Of a stretch of DNA of 64,000 nt, positions 5,114-47,877 are shown one piece after another (the first letter of the stretch is position 1; every line of letters begins with the position of its first letter). This DNA is from Dictyostelium discoideum (taxonomy: Eukaryota). The notes under the pieces were generated by a model, which worked only from the letters and a program-made list of their open reading frames with translations, ran no database searches and was not told where the DNA came from. Location: contig CM000154.2 of assembly GCA_000004695.1 (NCBI GenBank), positions 3,488,001 to 3,552,000 on the forward strand. The letters are read 5' to 3'. A program made the position numbers and the translations under genes.

Positions 5114-7445
5114 TAAATCATCTAAATCAGAGATCTCTGCATTATTCAAAGTTTCAAATTCAAACCAATTAACAATTAAAGTTCAATGTCCAGATAGTAA
5201 TGGTAGTGGTTATAATAGTACAAATATTGATTCTATTCTACCTTATTTATCATCATTTTCAATTAATTCAAATATTAGTTATATGGATATTCAAAATCAA
5301 GTTTTATCAATTGCTTTCCAAATTAAAGATAATGAAAGTGGTTTATCCACTAGACATAATCCAACTATTTACTTGGAAGATACACTTGGTAATATTATTT
5401 TTAGTACAGTTGGTAGTGGTATGGTTGTATTGGAAAGTAGCTCACATTCAAGATCTTATAAATGTAATATTACATTACCATTTGGTTTTGGTTTCCCTGG
5501 TGGTGTTTCAGTTTCAATCTATGGTATTGTAGATAAATTTATGAATGCCAAAGGTTATAGTTCAACAAGTTTAAAACAAACCGTTGACATTATTAATGGT
5601 GGTGATACTTCAAAATTCAATCCAATCGTTGATACACCATACAATGAAACTTCTCCATTAGCACCATATATCCCTCAACCAATTTATAATTCACAATCAA
5701 AAACTTTACAATTTGTTATTTATGGTTCATTTGTTGGCTTAAAACCAAGTGATATCATTGTTAAAGTTTCAAAAAAGAAATCAACAACAAATACTCCAAT
5801 TTTAATAAGAACTTTATTATCAAATAGTGATGATAGTGATGATGGTGATTTCCCTTACACTGTAGTTGAAATGACAGATTCTAAAGTTGTTTTAAATGTT
5901 AATATTACTGATGCAGCTAATGATTTAGATGCTGAATCTTTAGATGTTAGTTTTTTAATTGGTGATCAAACTCCAATTCTTTACAATATTGAAAATCCAG
6001 CTATTGTCACAACTTCTGGTGCTTCTTCAACCTCTCTAACAACAGTAACAACAGGCACTTCTCAAACAACAAGTACTTCTCAAACAACGGGTGGCACTAC
6101 CAATGGTGCTTCAACTACTGATGGTTCAGCAACTGGTGATTCTACAACATCAGCATCAACAGTAACAACATCACCAACCTCAACTACTGATGGCAGTCAA
6201 ACAACATCACCAACCTCAACTACTGATGGCAGTCAAACAACATCACCAACCTCTACCTCGGGTGATTCTACAACATCAGCATCTACAACAACACCAACTT
6301 CAACTACAACAGGTGGTTCATCTACTGCAACATCAACATCAAGTGGTGGGTCATCATCAACATCAACATCAACATCATCATCATCATCATCAGTTCCAGA
6401 TTGTTCAAGTTTATCAAATTGTGGTGGTTCAAGTCAAGGTAATTGTGTTGCAGATAATACATGTAGTTGTATTAACTCATGGATTGGAGTAGATTGTAAT
6501 TCTAAACCATTAAAAGGTGTATCAATAAATGTTAATCCAAATGCACCAAGTGCTTCATTAGATCAAGATGATGGATCAGGTGTTAAATTATCAAGTTTAA
6601 TTAATCTTTACCAAATTAGAGAAATTGATTCAGTTACAAATAAAATAATTTATCAATATGATTTACAAGATAAATGGGTACCAGTAAAACAAGCATCACC
6701 AATACCAAATACATTTATTTATTCAAATACATTATCAAATGCTAAAAGTTCAGTTATTTATGCAAAAATTGCAATTTATGATAAACAATCAACATTTGAA
6801 TTTGCAGGTCAACAATATTCAATTAATCCAAATTCAATTAAATTTACAATTAATATTACAAATTATAAAGTTGATAATGTATTAAATAATTTAGAATTGA
6901 TTATGCAAGCACAATTAAATTCATCACAAACTGATGATATTTGTTCAAAGAAAGAAGTTGTCAAAGGAAGTGGTTCAGATCAATTATCAGTTCAATTAAA
7001 TAATAAATCATTATATTGTAGATTTTTAAATAGTGCATTATTAGATGGAGTTACAGTTGTCAATAATTTAACTCATGTAGATTTAAATTCAGAACTTCAA
7101 GCATTGGTTGAACCAAATTCTGGTCAATATTACTATGGTATTGTTTTACCAGTTTTTGAAAACTTTGTTTTAATAGACCCAGATTTTTCTTTACTTTTAC
7201 AATCGAATTCAGTTTCAAGTGAAGATGGTTTATGTACAGGTGGTGGAGGTAGTGTAAAAGTATTAAATGGTGGACAAATAGCTGGTATTGTTATTGGTGG
7301 TGTTGCTTTCGTTGCGATTGCTGGTATTGCTATCTCTACCTTTGTTTTTAGAACTCATCGTTTCAGTTCAATGACAATGTCAATCAGAAGTTGGAATGCT
7401 AAAAGACGTCATTCAAAATCTTTCAAATTAAAGAATTTCCAATAA
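2340..7445 (+). CDS. large type-I surface glycoprotein (~1563 aa), 5 exons: 2340..2736, 2891..3217, 3289..3582, 3683..4315, 4405..7445. Signal peptide, large ectodomain, Ser/Thr-rich mucin-like linker, EGF-like Cys module, one TM helix, short basic tail
   Basis: Track ORFs 2340.., 3835.., 4521..7445 join with phase-consistent splices. The donors are GTATGT 2737, GTAAGT 3218, GTAAGT 3583 and GTAAAT 4316. The acceptors are ..caaag 2890, ..tttttag 3288, ..aaaag 3682 and ..ttttag 4404. Total CDS is 4692 nt, divisible by 3. N-terminus MKNFNQIFLLFILIAVIAIG looks like a signal peptide. The module PDCSSLSNCGGSSQGNCVADNTCSCINSWIGVDC is EGF-like. The segment GIVIGGVAFVAIAGIAISTFVF is a TM helix followed by the tail RTHRFSS..KRRHSK. 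Family uncertain; it may be IPT/EGF-type adhesion-like. Confidence 0.6.
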
Positions 7446-35289: not shown

Positions 35290-37475
35290 TTAAAGTTTAC
35301 TATTTATTAATGGTTTAATAGTTTCATTAAAACCTAATGGTAAAGAATTTTTATTAAATGGTTGAGTTGAAGCCCATTTATAAAGAGTTGAATAAACATC
35401 ACCATTATAAGAACCTAAAGCACTACCTAAAGTAGTATTACAGAGATCAAATGAATCAACTAGTGGTACTAAATTTGGACGTAATAATTTATAGAAATTG
35501 ATTAAACTCTTTTTTAAGAAATCAATTTGAGATAGTTCAACATATTGATCTTGAAGGAAATCAACTAAATTTGAATTAATAATCCAAATACTATAAGTTT
35601 GAAGTAATTGTATTAAAACAGTGGTTATCGATGAAGAACAACTTGAAGAATTTGAAGATAATAATAAAATTTGATCATAAAATGATTGAATTACATATAA
35701 TTGACAATGAGCTTTACTACAATGATTAATTTCAACATTAAGATCACTCCAAATTTGTGGTATATCTTTATTTCCATTACTCATTTGCTCTTGAATTGAT
35801 TCAGCAATTGATTTGATTAAAATGAATGAACGATGTTTAAAAAGTTGTAATAATGAATCTGGATGAATTATTGAATTTAAACCTTTCTCTTGAATGAATT
35901 GATTTATATTTTCAAATGATGATTGAAATTCATCATTTATATATTTAACTGATTTACCAATTGGTTTATTGTCATCATCAGCAGTGGTGGTGTCAGAACT
36001 ACCACCACCACCAGATAAAACTTTACGTAAAATAGTTAATAAATATTTTGTAGTTTGTTGTGGTAATAGATTACTTTCACCTTCAGCAGAGCTCATATGA
36101 ACATAATTTGACCAAAGATAAGGTAAACCACTAAATTGACTATAACCATGACCACCACATGATAAACGACAACTTTCAATACCATCAGAAGTTGATTGAG
36201 TCATTAAACTTTTTAAACCACTTGAATTTGCATGTAACTCTGAGAGAAGTGTAGTATCTTGATTATGTTTTACAGCTTTCATCATTTGATCAAATTCAAT
36301 TGAAAATCGTTTTCCAGTGAAAAAGTAAGCAAAAGTTTGAGCTAAATAAGGTATGATACGATTCATTTGATTTGAATATTCAATGATTTTCTTCTCTTGT
36401 TTATCTAAACGATTTGATTTAAATTGTTTTCTAATTGTAGAATAACGAATTGCAATTGTAACAGCACGTGATAAACTTACGAATGAATTCTCAATCATGC
36501 TAGATCTAACACCAACCATACCAGCATAGATCAATTTTGGATGTTTTGGTTTCTCATATTCGCCTTGTTCATTCACTCTAAAGAATCTTGATAACATATT
36601 TTCACGTGGTATTCTAACATGGTCCAATCTTAAAAATCCATTATCAATTGAATTGAATCCTAACTTTGGGCCAATATCACCAACGGTGACACCTGGCAAT
36701 GGTGAATGGTCATCTAAACTTCTAACTTGTAAAATGAATGGGTGTGGTCCATAATTTTTTAATTTACCATCAATACTTGATGGAATTAATAATTGAGCAA
36801 AAACAATAGTATGAGTTGCAAGTTTACCTAAACCACCAATCCAAAATTTAGTTGATGTCAAATTTGGTGAATTTAATTCAAATTCGCCAGTTTCTTTAAT
36901 AAAAGTACAAGTAGTTTCAATTCCTTGAACATTTGAACCATGACCAATCTCTGTTTGTGAATATGATCCAAAATATTGATAATTTTCAAATTTTGAATAT
37001 AATCTATTCATTTGTTCATCACTTGCTAATGATTTAAATGCACATGCAAATACAATATCATTAATAACGAATGGTATCTCTTCAAATAATGATTGATAAT
37101 ATTGATCACGACCAATCTCACCAAATCTTTTCTTTATTTCAATTAACTTTGATGAAACATATAATGCTCTCTTATATTGTTCTTCTCTTGATAAAAAATG
37201 AATTTCTTGTGGTTTTGAAATAATTTCATCATTATCAATAAATTTTTTAATTTCATTCTTTTTTTTTTTTTTTTTTAAAAAAAAAATTAAATTAATAAAT
37301 AAAAAATTATAGATTATTAGAAAAAATAAAATAAATTTACTTTAATATTTATAATATTATGATCATTATTATTTAAAATAAAATTTAATTCTGAAACTGA
37401 AAATGTTGATTGACTTCTTTCAAATTCTAAATCTTCATTTTTTTTTTCATTTTCATATGCTTTTGGACAATACAT
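35290..37475 (-). CDS. peroxisomal acyl-CoA oxidase, ~700 aa, 2 exons (37475..37341, 37257..35290), C-terminal PTS1 -SKL
   Basis: Acyl-CoA oxidase motifs: YSQTEIGHGSNVQGIETT and CGGHGYS. The protein ends ..LINSKL then a stop. The track ORF lacked the N-terminus. Exon 1 is MYCPKAYENEKKNEDLEFERSQSTFSVSELNFILNNNDHNIINIK (phase 0, GTAAAT donor). The acceptor is preceded by poly-A then AG at 37258, and exon 2 begins NEIKKFIDNDEII and runs in frame into the track ORF. Confidence 0.8.
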
Positions 37476-37826
37476 TTTTTTTTTATTATTATTATTTTAT
37501 TTGTATATGTTTGAAAGTTGCTTATAAAAAAAAAAAAATTGTGAAAATATTTTTTTTTTCATTTTCTCAAAAGATTTTTCTTTTTTTTTTTTTTTAATTA
37601 TTTTTATTATTTTTTTTTTTTTTCTCAAAATATCGTCATTTTAATATCAATTTGAAATAAATATCTTTTAAATTTTCAAATAATAAGATTTTAAAATCTT
37701 TTATTTTTTCAAGATAATTAATATATTATTTACTTAAAATAAATAAAATAAAATAAATAAATAAATTCTTATTTCTTTCTTTTTTTTTTTTTTTTTTTGA
37801 TTATTTTTTTATTTTTTTTTTTTTTA

Positions 37827-39203
37827 TTAATTTTTTTCATTAACTTTTAAAATATGTTTTGGAATATCATAAGAAATTAAAGTTTTATCAAAATTTGGAA
37901 CTAAATAAATTTCAGTTATTGAAGGTGGTAAAGTATCCATTGTTAATTGTTGTTTAAATGAACGACCAAGTTTTAGTGATCTTAAATTCTCTGGTAAATT
38001 TGATAAAGGTAAATTATAACTTTTTCCAAGATCTAAATAAATGATTGAATTTGGAAGTGCACCATAAACAAATGGTTTATTATAATTTGAAAATTCTAAA
38101 ATATTAACACAATCTGGTAAACAACCTGGTGAAATGATTTGATTAAATGCTTCACCAAATACTAACATACCAACTGAATTACCAATTAAACCAGGTGATA
38201 AAGGTTGATTGAATGAGTCACCAAATGTTAATGAAGCAACTGAATCTGGTATACTATTAATCGGTGGCAATTGATTATAGTTTGGGCCTAAAATAAGGGT
38301 TTTAACAGTACTTGGAATTGAACCAACTTCAAGAATTGGGTTTTTATTTGTAAAACTTTGATCAAGTGATAGCGTTGTCACCGATTCTGGAATGTCACCA
38401 ATGGTTAATGTACGACCATTAACTTCACCCAAATTTAAATCTTGTACATTCTTTGGCAACTTTTCAGCCAATAATTCAGTATTACATCTTGCCAAACGCA
38501 ATATCTCCACTGATGGGGGGATATTCACCATTTTAAAAGCAGTGTGAAAATATTGTCCGAAAATAAGTGTTTTCAAATTTGATGGCAATACATTCAGTGG
38601 TAGTGAAATTGGTGAGAATTCATCACCAAATTTCAAATAGGTGACACTCTCTGGAATTGAACCAACCTCTAAACTCTGATTGAATTTTCTACCAAATGTA
38701 ACGGATTTAGTAGTGTCTGGTATGAAACCTGTAGTTAGCTTCTTATTGAATAAATCTGTTATTGTGATCACTGTACTTTGAGTTGGAATTGATTTAATTA
38801 CATAATGTTTGAAAATCACTTGAATTATAGCTTGAGTTCTCCATACTTTATAAAATATATTTGATTTATCATCACAATGTGATTCATTGAATACATTGAA
38901 TCTTACACTATTATCTAATAAAAAGAAATTATCAATCACAATATTATTCAATATAATCTCTTCACTATCTATATAAATTGATTGTGATGATAAATCTTTT
39001 GAACTACCTTGTTTAATTTTACTTAAATCTTTTGAACTACCTTGTTTAATTTTACCTAAATCTTTTGAACTACCTTGTTTAATTTTACTTAAATCTTTTG
39101 AACTTTCTTGTTTAATTTTACTTAAATCTTTATCATCATCATTAAAATTTTCTTCTTTTTCACCATTTGTTTTCTTTTTAAAAATTTTACCAAATAATCC
39201 CAT
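37827..39203 (-). CDS. FNIP-repeat protein, 458 aa, with N-terminal 11-aa tandem repeats
   Basis: MGLFGK N-terminus is a possible N-myristoylation site. There are five copies of DLSKIKQGSSK. The rest is repeated FNIP motifs (..FGxxFNQxLxxGxIPxSVxxLxFG..), a repeat family typical of Dictyostelium. Confidence 0.7.
   Translation of the reverse strand: MGLFGKIFKKKTNGEKEENFNDDDKDLSKIKQESSKDLSKIKQGSSKDLGKIKQGSSKDLSKIKQGSSKDLSSQSIYIDSEEIILNNIVIDNFFLLDNSVRFNVFNESHCDDKSNIFYKVWRTQAIIQVIFKHYVIKSIPTQSTVITITDLFNKKLTTGFIPDTTKSVTFGRKFNQSLEVGSIPESVTYLKFGDEFSPISLPLNVLPSNLKTLIFGQYFHTAFKMVNIPPSVEILRLARCNTELLAEKLPKNVQDLNLGEVNGRTLTIGDIPESVTTLSLDQSFTNKNPILEVGSIPSTVKTLILGPNYNQLPPINSIPDSVASLTFGDSFNQPLSPGLIGNSVGMLVFGEAFNQIISPGCLPDCVNILEFSNYNKPFVYGALPNSIIYLDLGKSYNLPLSNLPENLRSLKLGRSFKQQLTMDTLPPSITEIYLVPNFDKTLISYDIPKHILKVNEKN
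38990..39130 (-). repeat. 33-nt tandem coding repeat (4-5 copies) encoding DLSKIKQGSSK units of the FNIP protein
   Basis: Plus-strand unit tcttttgaactaccttgtttaattttacttaaa is repeated head-to-tail with 1-2 substitutions per copy. Confidence 0.85.
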
Positions 39204-39472
39204 TTTTTTAGATTTTTTATTTTTATTTTTTTAATACGTATAATACAACAATGAAAAAAAAAAAAAAAAAAAAGATGAAGTTTCAAAATAAATAGAAATA
39301 AAGAGTAAGATGGTAATGAAATAAATGAAAAAAAAAAAATAAAAAAAAAGTAAAATATCCAACTGCAATTTTTTTTTTTTTTTTTTTTTAAAAATAAAAA
39401 AATAAAAAAAAAAAATAAAAAAAATAAAAAAATAATTGCAGATTCTAATCAGATTTCAATAAAAAAACGATT

Positions 39473-39507
<35 letters not shown>

Positions 39508-39672
39508 ATGATTTTTAAATGGCTAAAAATGGCTCATGATTGTTTTTTTTTTTTTTATATTTTTTTGATTGGATAATTAAATTATTTATTGTTTTTGTTT
39601 TTGTTTTATTTGAATATTTTTATTTTTAATTTTATTTTTATTTTTATTTTATTTTTTTTAAAAAATTAAAAA

Positions 39673-40128
39673 CTAATTAATTTTATTGTATAAATTTTTC
39701 TTTGATAATTGACCTAATTTATAAGACCAAAATAATGGATTGGATTTAACTTTATCATCTTTAACTATAACAATGTAGGTACCGAATCCTTTTGGAATTG
39801 AACATTGAATTGAAGTATTTGTTAATGGAATTTGATCAAAACATTGGAATGTATGTTTACGATATTGAATTGATTGAAAGTTAATACTAAGTTCTGAAAT
39901 ATTAAAGCTATCTAAATTGGAAACTGTAATATTTCCACCAGTTGGTCCAACTCTACCTAATTCTGGTTGAACTATTGCTTTGTTATCTTTATGATAAGAA
40001 TTATTATTATTATTATTACCATTATTAAAATATAAGAAAACATTTAAATCATTATTGAAACAATAAAAATAAAAATTTAAAAATATAATAAATAAAATAT
40101 TTAAAATTATAATTTTAATTTTATTCAT
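39673..40128 (-). CDS. small secreted protein with IPT/TIG-like domain, 151 aa
   Basis: Hydrophobic N-terminus MNKIKIIILNILFIIFLNFYFYC. Residues ~65-145 (NITVSNLDSFNISELSINFQSIQY..QCSIPKGFGTYIVIVKDDKVKSNPLFWSY) match an IPT/TIG beta-sandwich pattern. Confidence 0.45.
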   Translation of the reverse strand: MNKIKIIILNILFIIFLNFYFYCFNNDLNVFLYFNNGNNNNNNSYHKDNKAIVQPELGRVGPTGGNITVSNLDSFNISELSINFQSIQYRKHTFQCFDQIPLTNTSIQCSIPKGFGTYIVIVKDDKVKSNPLFWSYKLGQLSKKNLYNKIN

Positions 40129-40639
40129 TCTTTTTTTTATTTATTTATTTATATATAATAAAATTAAGATAAAATTTTATAATTTGTGGTGAAACTGTTA
40201 TTAATAATAAAAAAAAAAAAAAAAATTAAAAAAAAAAAAAAAAAAGAAATTAATAATGAAAATAATAATAATAATAATAATGTGGTATATTTTTATTATT
40301 AAAAATAAAAAATAAAAAAATAAAATAAAAATAAATTTATAAGCACATGTGTTCAAATTTTTAATTAAACCACTACCCCCTTTGATATAATTAAATTTTT
40401 TGAAATGATTATATTTGAATGTGATTAATTAAGTTTCCCACCACCTAAAAAAATTTTTTTTTTTTTTATAATTATTATTATTATTTTTTTTTTTTAATTA
40501 GTTTTTAATTTTCTTTTCTATTAATAGAATAAAACTGTTGAGAGAAAACATGTTTATTATTAGTACTTTTTTAAAAAATTAAAAAAAATTTTAATTTTAA
40601 TTTATTTTTTATTATTGTTATTATTATTAATTTAAAGGT

Positions 40640-41200
40640 TTTCTTGTATGAAAAATTTGAGTTTCATAATAAACAGTAAATTCTTTATTATTTGAAGTTA
40701 ATTCAAAATTATCTAATTTTGTTTTAATTGATTTATAAATTCTTGTTTTTCATTTGGTGGTAAAATTGAGATATAACTTTGACTTAATGAAGAAGCAATT
40801 GTTTTTTCACCAGTTGTAATTTGTGGATTTGGTAATGGTGGTATTAATTCAATAAAATCTGGGTTTAATAAATGGTGTAATTTTGAATCATTTTTAATTT
40901 CATCGAAAACATCTCTCCATTTATCACGTAATGATCGTGTTGGACTGACATTTCCTTCACCACCATGATACTTGGTATCACTATGAAGTCTTAAATTTTT
41001 TCAAATTGAATTGGATTTTTTGAATCTTGTCCAAATTTTAATTTATGCCAAATTATTACTAAAACACCATTGATATTTCCCACCTTTGATATTTCCCTAA
41101 CAGATTCAATATTACTAAACCAATGCCATGCCCAGCATACTGTTATACAGTCTATGAAATTATCAGGTAATGGAATTGATGTTGATAATCCATTTAAAAC
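40640..41200 (-). pseudogene. 5'-truncated, degenerate copy of the adjacent Tmt1-like methyltransferase gene
   Basis: About 560 bp align by eye with the C-terminal two-thirds of gene 41568..42446. Examples are ..cataataaacagtaaattctttattatttgaagtta.., ..catctctccatttatcacgtaatga.. and ..ccctaacagattcaatattactaaaccaatgccatgc... Several indels and substitutions mean no ORF of 60 aa or more survives. The segment encoding SAM-binding motif I is absent. Confidence 0.55.
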
Positions 41201-41567
41201 AAAAAAAAAATAATTTATTTGATTGAAAATTAAATCTTGTTTTTTTTTTTTTATAAGATATTATTTATAGATTAATCAATTATTTTAAAATATTTTATTT
41301 TAATTAAAAAAATTATTAAAAACAGATAAAGATTTTTAATCAAATAAATTTTATTTACCACTTGATTATATTATTATCAAAAAAAAAAAATTAAAAAAAA
41401 AAACTAAAGTTTAAACACATAAATAACTAAATAAAAAAACAGTAAATAACTAACTGTTTTTTTAAAACCAAAAAATAAACCTAAAATTTGAAAAAAAAAA
41501 AAAAAACATAATAGATAAAAAGAAGATATTGATAATTGAGCACTTTATTACAATTTGTATTTTTTTT

Positions 41568-42446
41568 TTAAATGTTTGGTTTTCTAGTATAAAATACTTC
41601 AGTATCATAATAAACAGTAAATTCTTTATTATTTGAAGTTAAATTAAAATTTTCTAAATTTTGTTTTAATTCATTTATAAATTGTTGTTTTTCATTTGGA
41701 GGTAATAATGAAATATAACTCATACTAAGTGATGAGGCAATTGTTTTTTCACCAAAAGTAATTTGAGGGTTTGAGAATGATGGCGATTTTGTAAGATCTG
41801 GATTTAAGTAAATATGAGTGGTTGGATCATTTTTCATTTCATCAAAAACATCTCTCCATTTATCACGTAATGATTTAGTTGGTAAATGATTATTTGCATT
41901 AAATTTTGCATCCCTATGAAGTCTAATAATTCCTTCAAGTTGTTGTGGATTTTTTGAGTTTTCACCAAAGTTTGCAATATTCCAAATTATTGCCAATACA
42001 CCATTTGGTTTTAGTACTCTTGATACTTCCCTAACAGATTCAATATTACTAAACCAATGCCATGCTGTTGCAACTGTAATACAGTCAACTGAATTATCAG
42101 GTAATGGAATTGAAGTTGATAAACCTTCTAATACTTTAAAATTTAATGAATTATTATTTTCAAGTTTTACTTGATTTAAAATATTTTCACATTCTTTTCT
42201 AAAATCACCACTTGGTTCAATACATGTAATATTATTAAAACCACCTTCAATTGCTAAAACTTTTGTAAATTTACCTGGTCCTGATGCTAAATCAACTATA
42301 ACTGAATCATTTGATAATCCTAAACTTTTTATAAATTCAATACATTCTTTTGGATATGATGGTCTACCTTTTGAATAATTATCACTACATTCTTTTGTAT
42401 GATAACCATATGCATTATCTTTTAATTTTAAATTTTCATTAATCAT
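41568..42446 (-). CDS. class I SAM-dependent methyltransferase, trans-aconitate methyltransferase (Tmt1)-like, 292 aa
   Basis: GRPSYP motif near the N-terminus. Motif I is VDLASGPGKFT. Motif post I/II is ..VDCITVATAWHWF... The overall pattern fits the yeast Tmt1/Crg1 family. Confidence 0.75.
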   Translation of the reverse strand: MINENLKLKDNAYGYHTKECSDNYSKGRPSYPKECIEFIKSLGLSNDSVIVDLASGPGKFTKVLAIEGGFNNITCIEPSGDFRKECENILNQVKLENNNSLNFKVLEGLSTSIPLPDNSVDCITVATAWHWFSNIESVREVSRVLKPNGVLAIIWNIANFGENSKNPQQLEGIIRLHRDAKFNANNHLPTKSLRDKWRDVFDEMKNDPTTHIYLNPDLTKSPSFSNPQITFGEKTIASSLSMSYISLLPPNEKQQFINELKQNLENFNLTSNNKEFTVYYDTEVFYTRKPNI

Positions 42447-42570
42447 TTTTTAAATAAAAAAAATAAAATAAAAAATATATATAATAACAATGTTAATTAA
42501 AAAAAATAATAATAATAAAAATTAAAAAAAAAAAAAATAAAAAAAAAAAAAAAAAAAAAAGGATCTTTTA

Positions 42571-42618
<48 letters not shown>

Positions 42619-42852
42619 AATAAAATAAAAAAAAAATATCTTGTCACAAGTGTCACCAAAATTAATAAAAAAAAAATAAAAAAAAATAAAAAATTCTGAT
42701 TGGAAATTTGTTAAACTTGTACCAAAAAAAAAAAAAAAACAATGTCAGCTATTCACACTGGTTTAGTTAAAAAAATGATAATAATTTTATTTTATTTTTA
42801 TTATTATTTATTATTTTTTTTTTTTTTTATTTTATTTTATTTTTTTTAAATT

Positions 42853-43707
42853 TTAAACAATTGGTTTTTTTGTAAAATAAACCTCAGTTTGATAAATCAT
42901 TGGAAAATCTTTATTATCTTTTGAATCTTCAAGTGAATCTAAACTTTTTTTAATCATTGAAACAAGTTTATCTTTCTTTTCTTGAGGGAATAAGGCAATG
43001 AAAGAAATTGAAAGTGTTGTTGCAATTATTTTTTCACAATTTGTGATTTGTTCATTTTTAAATTTTCTTAATTGTAAATTTGGATCAATTAAAGTTTTTG
43101 AGAGAGTTTCATCATTTTTAATATCTTCAAAGACTTGTTTCCATTTACCAGTTCTGAATTTTGGTGAATTGTCATCTGTATATTGTTTATTATTTCTGAA
43201 TAATTCCATTGTACTTTGAAAAATTGGATTATCATCCTCGGATAAATTATTCCAAATTAAGTATAAAACACCACCTGGTTTAAGTACCCTTGTAATTTCT
43301 TTAATTGCATCAACATTATCATACCAATGAAAACTTTGTGCTGCACATATACAATCGAATGTACTATTTTCAAATGGTAATGATGTTGCTAACCCATTCA
43401 CTACTTGAATATCCTTATTTTTATCATCAATAAATTCTTTTAAAACATATGAACAATCAACACGAAATTCTGGACTTGGTTCAACACAAACCACATTTTT
43501 AAAATCAGCTTCACAAATCATTTTTGAAAATTTTCCAGTACCACATGCTAAATCCATAATTTTTGAATCAATAGTTAATCCTAAATCTTCTTTTAACATT
43601 TTAATTGCTTCAATTGGATATGATGGACGACCTTTAACATAATTTGATGAAACATCTTTATCATGATATGCTTTTGCATTTGAATGTAAATTTAAAATTT
43701 CTGTCAT
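42853..43707 (-). CDS. class I SAM-dependent methyltransferase, Tmt1-like paralog, 284 aa
   Basis: Paralog of 41568..42446 with GRPSYP, MDLACGTGKFS and FDCICAAQSFHWY. Track ORF 42998..43219(+) is antisense and spurious. Confidence 0.75.
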   Translation of the reverse strand: MTEILNLHSNAKAYHDKDVSSNYVKGRPSYPIEAIKMLKEDLGLTIDSKIMDLACGTGKFSKMICEADFKNVVCVEPSPEFRVDCSYVLKEFIDDKNKDIQVVNGLATSLPFENSTFDCICAAQSFHWYDNVDAIKEITRVLKPGGVLYLIWNNLSEDDNPIFQSTMELFRNNKQYTDDNSPKFRTGKWKQVFEDIKNDETLSKTLIDPNLQLRKFKNEQITNCEKIIATTLSISFIALFPQEKKDKLVSMIKKSLDSLEDSKDNKDFPMIYQTEVYFTKKPIV

Positions 43708-44203
43708 TTTCTTTTTAAAATCTTAATTAATTTAATTTAAATCTTATAATTTTATAAAGTGTTTTTTTTATTTATATTTTAAATTTTAATTGGTGTGTTT
43801 AGAAAAAAAAAAAAAAAAACTTTTTATACCAAAAAAAAAATCTTTTTTTTTTTTTTTTTTAATTTTATTTTATTTTAATTTTTATTTTATTTTTTTACAA
43901 CTGAAAAATCATCAGAGGCCTTGTAACCTTCTAACGAAACAAAAAAGGTAAAAAAGTCAAAAAATAAAAAAATATTATTAAAAAGAAAAACAATTAAAAA
44001 AATATACCACTATCATAGTGAAATTAAAAATAGTTATGAAAATAAGATTTTACCACATTCGTTTTATTTTTAAATTTTAAAAATAAACTTATATAACCTT
44101 ACAACTAAAACAAATCAAAATAATAAAAAAAGGGATTGCGAATTTATGATTTTATAATTTTTTTATTTTTTTTTTATTTTATATTTTTTTTATTTTTTTT
44201 CTT

Positions 44204-44300
44204 TTAATTTAGTGCTGTACCAACGGTTGGTGTAGGTTCACGATTAAAAGTTTTAGTTCCTCTCAAAGTTTTAAATATTCTTTTTGAAAATGATGTATTA

Positions 44301-44340
<40 letters not shown>

Positions 44341-47300
44341 TTTCATTTGAATTATTATTATTATTATTATTATTTGATAAATTTGAAATTGGAGTTGAAG
44401 TTAAATTTGGACTATTATTAACATTCCCACTATTATCACCACTACTATTAGTTTGACTATTTTGATCACTTAAATTTGGATGTAAAGTTGGAACTAGAGG
44501 TGAAGAAAATATTGAAATTCTTGATTTTGTACCACGTACAGGCATTGTTAATGACATTGCTTTTTTTTTTGAAGGTGATTGTAAAACTACTGTTATATCT
44601 GCTTTTGGTTTTTGTTGTTCTAATAATTCTTTCTCTTTTTGTTCTCTTTCTTTTTGATCCCTCTTTTTTTCTTTCTCCAATTTTCTTTCAGCTCTTTCTT
44701 TTTGTTTCTTTTCTTTTTCTAATTTTCTTTTTTCTTTTTCTTGTTTTCTTAATTCTTTTTCAAGTTTACTAGCTGATGTAATTGCTGTTGATGAAGTAGT
44801 TGTAGTTGTTGTAGCCAATAAAGATGATTCATCGATTGGGTCAAGTAATGTTTGTTGTTGTTGTTGTTGTTGTAATTGGTTTTGATTTTGAGAAATTGAA
44901 GATTGAGAATCTGATTCCATACTATAAGTTATAGTTTCATTTGGTTGTTCTTGTTGTTCTAGTTCTTGTTGTTCTTGTTGTTCTTGTTGTTGTTGTTGTT
45001 TTTGTAGTTGTTGTTGTTCGATTTGTTGTTGTTCATGTTGTAGCTGTTGTTCTTGTTGTTGCTGTTGTTCTTGTTGTTGTTCTAATTGACTTTGTTCATT
45101 TTGTTGGTTAATTTCTGAACTTGATTCCATTTGATTATTTGGATGTTGTGATGTAAATTGATTCATTTCATCTTGTTCTTGTTTAATATCATCACCACTT
45201 GGAGATTTCAATTTATCATTATTAACTTGAACTGATTCATTTATAGTTTCATCTTTTGTTGGTGTGGTAGTAGTTGTTGTTGTTGTTGTTGTTGTAGGTG
45301 TAGTAGAGGCATTTGTAAGTGTTGTGGTATTTCTAGGTGTAGTTGAAGTGTTTGTAAGTGTTGTGGTATTTGTAGGTGTAGTTGTTGTTGTTGTTATTGT
45401 TTCATTTATTTTAATATCTGGTTGAGTAATTGAATTTGAAGATGTAGATAATGATTTTCTTTTTGAAGATGAGGAAGTTCTTGATCTTGAAGATTTTGAA
45501 GATTTTTCTTTTGAATCCTTCTCATCAGTTGATTTACGATGATGATGATGGTGATGGTGATGATGGTGATGATGATGATGTTTACTACTACTACCACTAC
45601 TACCACTTGAACTACCACTAGCACCATCTTTTGATCTTCTTGATCTTTTTTTCTTTTGAAAAGCAATTAAATCACCATTAACATATGATACACCTAATGA
45701 ATGAGCTATTAAAGTATTTGATTTTCTACTTGCTTTTGGTGGATTTCTCCATTTCAAAAAATAATCAGACCATAATTGAACACCCTTTGGATTTGGAAAT
45801 AATACACCATCATCATTATTATTTTTAAATTGTAATTGTTGATCTAATGTAGTTGAATTTGTTAAAGGTATTGAAGTAGTGGCAGTAAGATTGGTGGTAG
45901 AAGAAGTTTCATTTGATAATTGTTGATTAAATAATGGATTTAATAAAGATGAATTCTTTTGAGCAGATAATAATAAAGTCCATAATGATTGAGTTTCAGT
46001 TGGTAAATTATTTTGTTGTCTTTCTTTTTCAGAATCATATAAAAAAGTACCAAAAAGATTCGAATTTAAATGATGAAGAATCACTGATAAGAAACTATCG
46101 GAAAATTCAAAACTAGTTGGAAATTGTTTAGTTAATTGCCAAACTACATCAATAAATTGAAGGAATACTGGTGAAGTTTGTTTTGATGAAGTTGTTGTTG
46201 TTGTTGTGGTAGTTGCATTTGACGAAATAGATGTATTTGAACTTGATGATGTTAATTGGCCATTTGATGATGAATTTGTTGTTGTTGTTGAAGTTGAAGA
46301 AATTGATTGACCATTTCTTGTCATAAATTTATGACCAAATGATAACCATTCCTTTGAAATCAATACAATGAAACCTTTAATAGTACGATAATATGGATCA
46401 GCACATAATTGAACCAGTGATGATAATTGACAAGTTCTATCCCAACCATCAATACAATGAATTAAGCATGAAAATCCTTCCAAATGTAAATGAGTTAGAA
46501 TTTTCTTTGTAACCATTAATAGTTTACTTAATTGATCTAACCAACCAGTAGATTGAATTTCTGACCAACCTTTCTTTTCATTCCAATTTCTAATCACTTT
46601 AAATAATTTCAATTGTGATTCACGTAATTCATGAATATTCGATAAACATTCACTTTCAATTTGACATTGACTATAATGTGAAATATCTTCACAATGTGAT
46701 GAAGATGATGAAGTTGGTGATGATGAAGTTGATTTAATATCAATTATATATAAAGTTTGTTGTTGTTGTTGTGGTTGTTGTTGTTGATTATTATTATTTG
46801 GTAAAATTGTTTTTGATTTTCTAATTGCTTGAATTAATAATTCATCTTCTTCACAACGTGATTTACCAGTTTGTTGAGAAGAACGTGATAAAGTTGCATG
46901 GGTTTGTTTATGTCTCCAAGTTACAACAGGGAATCTATTTTTATTTCTATGTGAAGATGATTTATTTAAAAGGTAATCTGAAATTGAGAATGGTATTATA
47001 AAATGTTGAGGATAAGTTGAACATAATTCATATTTACTATTCATTTTAGTTAGCCTCCATTCATCACTACCATTACTATTACCAATTAATCCTTGACGAG
47101 TATATTCTTCAATTGGATCATAAAATAACCAACCATCAATTGGTGATATAACACCTTTAAATGGTGAATAACTCATTGAAAACAATTGATTACTATCTTG
47201 ATAATTATTACAAATTAATTTATTCATTAATTCAAATGCTTCATTACCTTTTTCATTAAATGGTAAACAATATCTTGTTATCATAAAATCTTTACATCTA

Positions 47301-47877
47301 ATCTCTAAAATTAATGCTTTCTCTGATACACCATTAGAATACCATGTATTTGTACTACAATTACCATTAGTTGAAGAAGTTGTTGTTGTTGTTGTTGTCG
47401 TTGATGATAAAGTTGGTGAATTTGTCGATGTTGATGATTCATTTAAATTTATTGGTGTTGAATTTGATTTTAATAATCTTGATCTACTTGATGTTGATGG
47501 TTGTGTCAAACTATTCATTAAATTATTATTATTAATATTATTATTACCATTATTATTGTTATTATTATTATTATTATTATTATTTAAATTTTCATTTTGT
47601 GAAGGCTGTTTTTCAAGTGAAAATGAATTTAATTGGTCTGTCGATGAATTATTACTTTTATTAATATTATTATTATTATTATTATTGGTATTATTATTAT
47701 TATTATTATTATTATTGTTGTTGTTGTTGTTGTTGTTTGGGGTAGTATTATCGTGATATTTTACAGTAACATGGCCTTTTAATTTTTTAATTTGTAATAA
47801 TTGTCCATTTGCTATTGTTGAAACTAGTTGCTAATTTTATTTTTTAAAAAAAAAAAAAAAAAATGGGTGAGTATGAA

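Follow-up and report, generated by a model that had tools for sequence, protein, structure and literature searches.

The 64,000-nucleotide (nt) stretch of Dictyostelium discoideum DNA analysed here (contig CM000154.2, positions 3,488,001 to 3,552,000; hereafter the window) contains a tandem array of three related genes on the minus strand, of which two (gene 1 and gene 2) are intact and the third (copy 3) is a remnant. We hold with high confidence that the array is a conserved tandem set of three paralogous class I (type 11) S-adenosylmethionine (SAM)-dependent small-molecule methyltransferase genes whose third member is now a pseudogene in situ. In this explanation, duplication of the gene-2 ancestor would have produced a third paralog that was long held by purifying selection, and that would then have lost constraint in the D. 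discoideum complex, where it is being destroyed. In the window lineage, a ~375-bp deletion took away the proximal upstream DNA, the start codon and the first ~105 codons, comprising the whole SAM-binding N-terminal half; the remaining frame was broken by two 1-bp deletions; and a conserved motif was scrambled by a templated 12-bp replacement. The window has a G+C content of ~20%. The open reading frames (ORFs) of gene 1 (284 aa) and of a neighbouring 151-aa gene match AX4 proteins exactly, and that of gene 2 matches ACTFIT_001320 exactly; these matches identify the region as AX4-type chromosome 5.

When the 292-aa protein of gene 2 was searched against the window with tblastn, the third copy was recovered at 40636..41206 as three collinear pieces in three frames, corresponding to residues 103-173, 174-261 and 253-290 of gene 2 at 61-70% identity (summed E value of 2e-63, far beyond chance). 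The same search gave no copy 3 match to residues 1-102, and none anywhere in 41201..41567. At the DNA level, gene 2 and copy 3 are 80% identical over 577 bp, and the in-frame differences of +6 and +3 bp in this alignment are paralog differences rather than lesions. The remnant (40627..41200, minus strand) consists of codons ~106-298 and the stop codon of an ancestral 298-aa gene, read in three successive frames; homology begins abruptly at 41200, and the terminal stop (40627..40629) lies in its ancestral position. The first-pass annotation, which had been made from the sequence alone, placed the third copy at 40640..41200 and described it as aligning to the 3' two-thirds of gene 2 without the motif-I region. 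That description is borne out by the tblastn match to residues 103-290 only. The edge at 41200 is right; the other edge lies at 40627.

Referenced to the intact ortholog of copy 3 at locus L003 (D. cf. discoideum ACTFIZ), the window copy carries three disabling lesions, namely one ~375-bp deletion and two 1-bp deletions. The large deletion was mapped against loci L001 and L002, from assemblies labelled Dictyostelium discoideum (ACTFIR and ACTFIW), in which copy 3 is full-length but broken. Its breakpoints were taken from pairwise alignments to these two loci, and the high-scoring segment pairs reported by blastn break at WIN 6805/6801, equivalent to L001 5945/6316. The intergenic region between gene 2 and copy 3 (41201..41567) is retained, its orthologous counterpart in other strains being the DNA 5' of copy 3; in particular, the DNA 3' of gene 2 is orthologous to that of L001 and L002 up to a poly-T tract ~60 bp before the copy 3 ATG. 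The upstream DNA is orthologous and then jumps to codon ~105/106, with the poly-T tract abutting GTTTTAAATGG at 41200..41201, so that a single clean deletion accounts for the 5' truncation. Lost with it were ~60 bp of 5' flank, the ATG and codons 1-105, together with the GRPSYP motif, motif I and the acidic beta-2 residue. (A global alignment of the window intergenic DNA to the missing 5' coding region, reference nt 1-315, gave spurious AT-rich matching and was disregarded.) The spacer between gene 2 and copy 3 also contains, relative to L001 and L002, a lineage-specific insertion of ~45 bp, AATCAAGTGGTAAATAAAATTTATTTGATTAAAAATCTTTATCTG, at ~41330..41375.

The two remaining lesions lie within the retained coding sequence. 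Frameshift 1 (40991..40995) is a 1-bp deletion in codon 176 that converted GAAAAAATATTAAGA to GAAAAAATTTAAGA, the base lost being the bracketed A of ...AAAAAAT[A]TTAAGA (window ~40994/40995), and created a TAA at 40991..40993. Frameshift 2 (40713..40716; window ~40715/40716) is a 1-bp deletion in codon 269 that shortened a run of three T to two (CAAAATTTAGAT to CAAAATTAGAT) and created a TAG at 40713..40715; it is private to the window lineage. Both in-frame stops are consequences of the frameshifts, and neither six-frame translation, DNA alignment nor comparison with the intact ortholog revealed an independent nonsense substitution in the window copy. Relative to its intact orthologs the window copy has no further internal indels, a 6-bp gap at codon 161 being an insertion private to the L003 reference. 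The third copy had been said to have accumulated indels and stops: aligned with gene 2 it has no intact frame, and its frameshifts are real, but they amount to two 1-bp deletions, with no nonsense mutation arising on its own account.

The window copy also differs from its relatives by a cluster of substitutions at 41070..41097 that turned RVLKPNG into KVGNING through five window-specific codon changes (codons 144-148) within ~14 bp. The window has two direct copies of the 12-mer GGGAAATATCAA, 16 bp apart, at 41086..41097 and at 41070..41081, whereas all relatives compared (L001-L004) have ACTAAAACCAAA at the second site. The cluster is one templated event, in which the 12-mer was copied over the ancestral sequence.

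No substantial ATG-initiated ORF is left on the minus strand of 40627..41200, and the remnant keeps only the C-terminal part of the Methyltransf_11 domain (roughly from motif post-I onward), without motif I. The intergenic DNA to either side of the remnant is orthologous, the remnant occupies the same slot between gene 2 and the 151-aa gene as copy 3 does elsewhere, and it is devoid of the hallmarks of retroposition. No methyltransferase can be made from the remnant, which is best classed as a non-processed pseudogene in situ; presumably it makes no protein.

A different reading of the remnant is embodied in the AX4 RefSeq/UniProt entry for gene 2 (DDB_G0289999, XP_635949.1, Q54GQ3), a protein of 380 aa as compared with the 292 aa of the gene 2 ORF. 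This protein (P0019) follows gene 2 as far as ...YYDTEV, continues through an intergenic 'YFLVLKK' and ends with the middle frame of the pseudogene (HDTKYHGG...NQLKQN). We could rebuild it exactly from the window with canonical GT-AG introns, the model consisting, on the minus strand, of exon 1 (42446..41598), intron 1 (41597..41481, 117 nt), exon 2 (41480..41455, 26 nt), intron 2 (41454..40981, 474 nt) and exon 3 (40980..40713, 268 nt, the middle frame of copy 3). If this model were right, the middle frame of copy 3 would have been exapted as a last coding exon, and the C-terminal lid segment would be present twice in the protein. We regard this as very unlikely, despite the exact reconstruction. 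The model bypasses the gene 2 stop and the ...FYTRKP C-terminus, which is conserved in all eight gene-2 orthologs, in gene 1 and in copy 3; its third exon starts inside the remnant and stops at the TAG made by frameshift 2; its second exon is only 26 nt of AT-rich intergenic DNA; and its second intron is long for Dictyostelium, in which introns are typically ~100-150 nt. Moreover, a newer annotation of a near-identical assembly gives gene 2 as 292 aa and calls nothing on the remnant. On account of the skipped C-terminus, the frameshift-made TAG, the long intron and the newer 292-aa annotation, the 380-aa model is probably a gene-pseudogene fusion and an annotation artefact. A contig search found no record encoding the 380-aa model. 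One Logan contig, SRR24091725_8734 (L010, 956 bp), corresponds to window 41542..42497, that is, gene 2 with 51 and 26 nt of flank; it is unspliced through the donor of the 380-aa model, and would speak for the 292-aa model if the run is RNA-seq. DDB_G0289999 should probably become a 292-aa protein plus a separate pseudogene, a change that matters for orthology, knock-outs and proteomics.

The ancestry of copy 3 is evident from its relatives in other genomes. Two groups of proteins came out of a search with the gene 2 protein: the gene-2 orthologs, and a second group that shares ~70% identity with gene 2. The loci of all six proteins of the second group place them at the same position as the window copy 3. 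Three of these are intact, full-length orthologs: P0005 (298 aa; ACTFIZ, L003), P0004 (301 aa; D. citrinum, L005) and P0003 (296 aa; D. dimigraforme, L006). The other three are short and irregular gene models: P0006 and P0009 come from further assemblies labelled 'D. discoideum', and P0008 comes from D. cf. discoideum ACTFIY. Gene order across the region (myotubularin-like gene, gene 1, gene 2, copy 3, 151-aa gene, FNIP-repeat gene and acyl-CoA oxidase (ACOX) gene) is kept in seven further D. discoideum-group loci (L001-L006 and L009), and in D. firmibasis (L007) it is the same, minus copy 3. An RPSYP-type N-terminal motif is found in gene 1, in gene 2 and in every intact copy 3 ortholog.

These comparisons bear directly on a reading implied by the first-pass annotation, in which the remnant would be a degenerate duplicate of the gene next to it and its 5' truncation would reflect an incomplete duplication. 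Such a history, in which a recent partial tandem duplicate of gene 2 never had a 5' end and later decayed, would fit the position of the remnant directly downstream of gene 2 on the same strand, its alignment to only the 3' two-thirds of that gene and the 80% nucleotide identity between them. However, the window remnant is 84-94% identical in amino acid sequence to the intact P0005, as against 61-70% to gene 2, and its nearest relatives are thus the third copies of other taxa. In addition, the third copies elsewhere are full-length at the orthologous position, and the sequence upstream of the junction is orthologous, which argues that the 5' end was deleted secondarily, in the window lineage, by the ~375-bp event. 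Finally, a neighbour-joining tree puts copy 3 in a separate, old clade. We therefore consider a recent partial duplication exceedingly improbable.

In the same tree, the copy 3 clade is sister to the gene 2 clade, which includes the D. firmibasis gene; the single D. purpureum gene falls outside both clades, and gene 1 is an older lineage. The D. purpureum gene is equidistant from gene 2 and copy 3 (53.7% and 54.0%). This equidistance and the placement of the clades indicate that the gene-2/copy-3 duplication is old. With the same high confidence that we attach to the explanation as a whole, copy 3 would stem from a duplication of the gene-2 ancestor that postdates the divergence of D. purpureum but precedes that of D. 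firmibasis, and it stayed intact across several speciation events. (Exchange of sequence between gene 2 and copy 3 by gene conversion, which was considered on the strength of identical runs of 30-39 nt, was rejected: conserved residues and a strong bias toward A/T-ending codons explain the runs, and the tree is without clade mixing.) In D. firmibasis, a tblastn search of the 650-bp gap at the corresponding position (L007 7898..8546) found no copy 3 relic, with a best E value of 3.7, and blastn of the gap gave only flanking or low-complexity matches, a very noisy, AT-rich output of which the usable part is the match to the downstream flank. D. firmibasis has lost copy 3 completely. The locus had been presented as a snapshot of the birth and death of genes; the death is there to be seen, but not the birth, since copy 3 is an old paralog with intact orthologs elsewhere and the three-gene array is old and conserved.

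Copy 3 is broken in several lineages, and differently in each. At locus coordinates ~6001..6900 of the respective loci, L001 has a +1 frameshift at codon 119, a TGG>TAG change at codon 156 and a 41-bp deletion at codon 198; L002 has a -1 frameshift at codon 174, TCA>TAA at codon 197 and TTA>TAA at codon 218; and L004 has a +1 frameshift at codon 207, a 2-bp deletion at codon 213, an 11-bp deletion at codon 256 and CAA>TAA at codon 268. No lesion is common to any two of the four broken lineages (the window, L001, L002 and L004). Indeed, L001 and L002 diverge by only ~1% over the whole 12-kb region, yet have no lesion in common. The 1-bp deletions at window codon 176 and at L002 codon 174, the latter in an A-run, were considered as one event; this was rejected, different deleted bases being required. 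Over codons 107-296, no disabling or radical change common to all broken lineages was found on the ancestral branches, and the N-terminal parts of the proteins encoded by the broken full-length copies are essentially identical to the intact protein. A single ancestral inactivation may have occurred through a common regulatory lesion. As judged from the coding sequence, the common ancestor of the D. discoideum complex seems to have had an unbroken copy 3 ORF, which was then disrupted at least four times independently. Together with its complete absence from D. firmibasis, copy 3 seems to have been lost at least five times independently.

Artefacts of assembly or sequencing in a gene that is really intact are scarcely credible as the source of the truncation and frameshifts, even though frameshift 2 lies in a short homopolymer (T3 to T2), frameshift 1 directly follows an A6 run and the deletion junction falls in poly-T, all of them error-prone contexts, because a chromosome-level assembly produced independently, GCA_054883475.1 (L009), agrees with the window at every base from 39601 to 42536, which establishes that the deletion and both frameshifts are real, while T-run differences at 42537..42580 indicate that it is no copy of the same sequence, and because other lineages carry different, non-homopolymer lesions in the same gene. 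(These poly-T run lengths, in the spacer between gene 1 and gene 2, are the only differences between the window and L009, and represent either length polymorphism or sequencing error.)

Substitution patterns indicate that selection on copy 3 differs between the intact and broken lineages. Nei-Gojobori estimates of dN/dS (the ratio of nonsynonymous to synonymous divergence) are 0.12-0.19 when intact copies are compared with one another and 0.35-0.39 when the window copy is compared with the other broken ones. Counted on terminal branches, changes in the broken lineages comprise 5 synonymous and 13 nonsynonymous substitutions plus 3 stops, as compared with 20 synonymous and 12 nonsynonymous in the intact lineages (Fisher p = 0.011; counting the templated cluster as one event raises this to 0.038). 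In gene 2, the same four lineages have 12 synonymous and 3 nonsynonymous changes (p = 0.002). Random changes in the copy 3 ORF would be 20% synonymous, 73% nonsynonymous and 7% stop-creating, and the nonsynonymous-to-synonymous ratio of ~3 on the broken branches is near neutral. The intact orthologs of copy 3 thus appear to be under purifying selection, and constraint is, by these measures, relaxed in the broken lineages.

Several points weigh against our explanation. Few substitutions fall on each branch. If the assemblies behind L001, L002 and L004 are Nanopore-based, their single-base homopolymer indels could be errors; Nanopore assemblies of this group of species are described in a 2025 preprint on tgr genes, which could not be linked to the accessions compared here. 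(Note that L001, L002 and L004 each also carry a nonsense substitution and/or a deletion of at least 11 bp.) In addition, the AX4 RefSeq model takes in 268 nt of the remnant, and the remnant may be transcribed or read through.

As for why selection on copy 3 would have relaxed, the parallel losses might go beyond drift and reflect adaptive loss ('less is more') or an ecological shift that made the substrate of the enzyme irrelevant; we think this rather unlikely. If it were true, the locus would offer a natural experiment through which to identify the substrate, for example a dietary, bacterial or signalling metabolite, and selection behind the losses would point to a specific lost metabolic activity, which would be moderately interesting.

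The two intact members of the array are as first annotated, the coordinates of both minus-strand paralogs (292 and 284 aa) being exact. Gene 1 (DDB_G0290001; 42853..43707) encodes a 284-aa class I SAM-dependent methyltransferase identical to EAL62446.1 / XP_635950.1; gene 2 (41568..42446) encodes 292 aa and is identical to ACTFIT_001320 of a second D. discoideum assembly, its AX4 RefSeq model being the 380-aa DDB_G0289999 discussed above. The proteins are 41% identical to one another. Both contain GRPSYP and a glycine-rich motif I (VDLASGPGKF / MDLACGTGKF), and both match the Pfam family Methyltransf_11 (PF08241) over profile positions 1-95 of 95, with scores of 69.2 bits (E value 5e-19) for gene 1 and 57.0 bits (E value 3e-15) for gene 2 against a gathering cut-off of 21.2 bits. 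Gene 1 has orthologs at the matching position in eight taxa and is the oldest paralog of the array; gene 2 has orthologs of 292-298 aa in eight taxa, all ending in the conserved ...FYTRKP. An AlphaFold2 model of gene 2 shows alternating beta strands and alpha helices, with a predicted local distance difference test (pLDDT) score of at least 82 (mostly 89-97) over residues 31-160; the quality of the whole model is moderate (mean pLDDT 77.5, with residues 1-26 and 178-193 below 50). The top fold matches of the model are all SAM methyltransferases. Both genes presumably encode working enzymes. A literature search for DDB_G0289999 and DDB_G0290001 found nothing specific, nor did searches for the SRA run SRR24091725 and for the new assemblies.

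Upstream of the array on the minus strand lies the myotubularin-like gene (44204..47518), whose 1104-aa ORF contains the myotubularin-type phosphatase motif HCIDGWDRT and long poly-T/Q/N/H tracts. This interval is one exon; related assemblies model the whole gene at ~1300 aa. Downstream of the array, the 151-aa ORF (39673..40128) is exactly the AX4 protein DDB_G0289997, and is followed by the FNIP-repeat gene (37827..39203, 458 aa) and, beyond it, the ACOX gene. The N-terminus of the 458-aa FNIP-repeat protein has SKDLSKIKQGS repeats, which are encoded by a 33-bp tandem repeat at 38991..39131 (4.3 copies, 96% matches). Orthologs of this protein are 454-486 aa long, and the copy number of the tandem repeat is probably variable. 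Over the whole 12-kb region (36001..47210), ACTFIR and ACTFIW differ from the window by ~3% substitutions, roughly tenfold the mean within-species diversity given in a 2025 preprint (0.003). ACTFIR and ACTFIW may represent cryptic species or deeply diverged lineages.

The genes of the array had been called Tmt1-like, after the yeast trans-aconitate 3-methyltransferase (PDB 3G5T), and this holds only loosely. The Y-x(3)-RPSYP motif that precedes motif I is common to the two, with sdnYskgRPSYP of gene 2 aligning to seRYSSSRPSYP of 3G5T, as is an HWF motif; both have the class I SAM-methyltransferase fold with a Methyltransf_11 core, and their lengths are similar (292 aa for gene 2 and 299 aa for Tmt1). 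The predicted structure of gene 2 superposes on 3G5T at full length, including the C-terminal lid, over 303 columns (template modelling scores of 0.66 normalized to the query and 0.64 to the target); in a Foldseek search of the PDB with the gene 2 model, 3G5T ranked third (E value 1.3e-13) and had the highest template modelling score among the 50 matches listed. In contrast, the sequence match of gene 2 to Tmt1 covers residues 21-158 only (E value 1.3e-5), and identity is ~18%. In a search of PDB sequences with a family profile, every match of which is limited to the Rossmann core, Tmt1 came ninth (E value 9e-10), behind 3EGE, 3DLC, 3DH0, 1XXL and others; generic uncharacterised bacterial and archaeal type-11 methyltransferases thus score higher by sequence. 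Gene 1 has no match to 3G5T at an E value of 1e-3 or better. Because identity is ~18%, the profile rank is ninth and gene 1 has no Tmt1 match, no inference of substrate is justified; trans-aconitate as the substrate of the array enzymes would be only a guess, by analogy with Tmt1.

The best Foldseek E value for the gene 2 model (4e-14) was to a different enzyme, HvrF (PDB 9E72, with S-adenosylhomocysteine and pantaphos), which was also found by sequence, in an alignment that runs from the N-terminal motif. HvrF differs from gene 2 in being a shorter (~256 aa) bacterial natural-product enzyme with 16-17% identity, so that the resemblance is one of fold and subfamily only. The array family belongs to a broad RPSYP-type Methyltransf_11 subgroup that includes Tmt1 and HvrF, both of which are small-molecule methyltransferases. 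The UniRef name for DDB_G0290001 and DDB_G0289999 is 'Methyltransferase type 11 domain-containing protein'.

Copy 3 is an ordinary kind of feature, of modest interest and with nothing in it to surprise a specialist. The locus offers a clean, well-polarised case in which a paralog conserved for a long time loses constraint and sibling lineages carry independent sets of lesions; as such it could help to date when constraint was lost and to calibrate the spectra of indels and substitutions in a genome of extreme AT content, and it could illustrate templated multi-nucleotide mutation. Like a standard non-processed pseudogene in the 'death' phase of birth-and-death evolution, copy 3 lies in situ beside functional paralogs, has lost its promoter-proximal and 5' coding region, and has frameshifts, a raised nonsynonymous-to-synonymous ratio and lesions that differ between related lineages. 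Unlike a typical young redundant duplicate, however, copy 3 was conserved under purifying selection across several species before it was lost.

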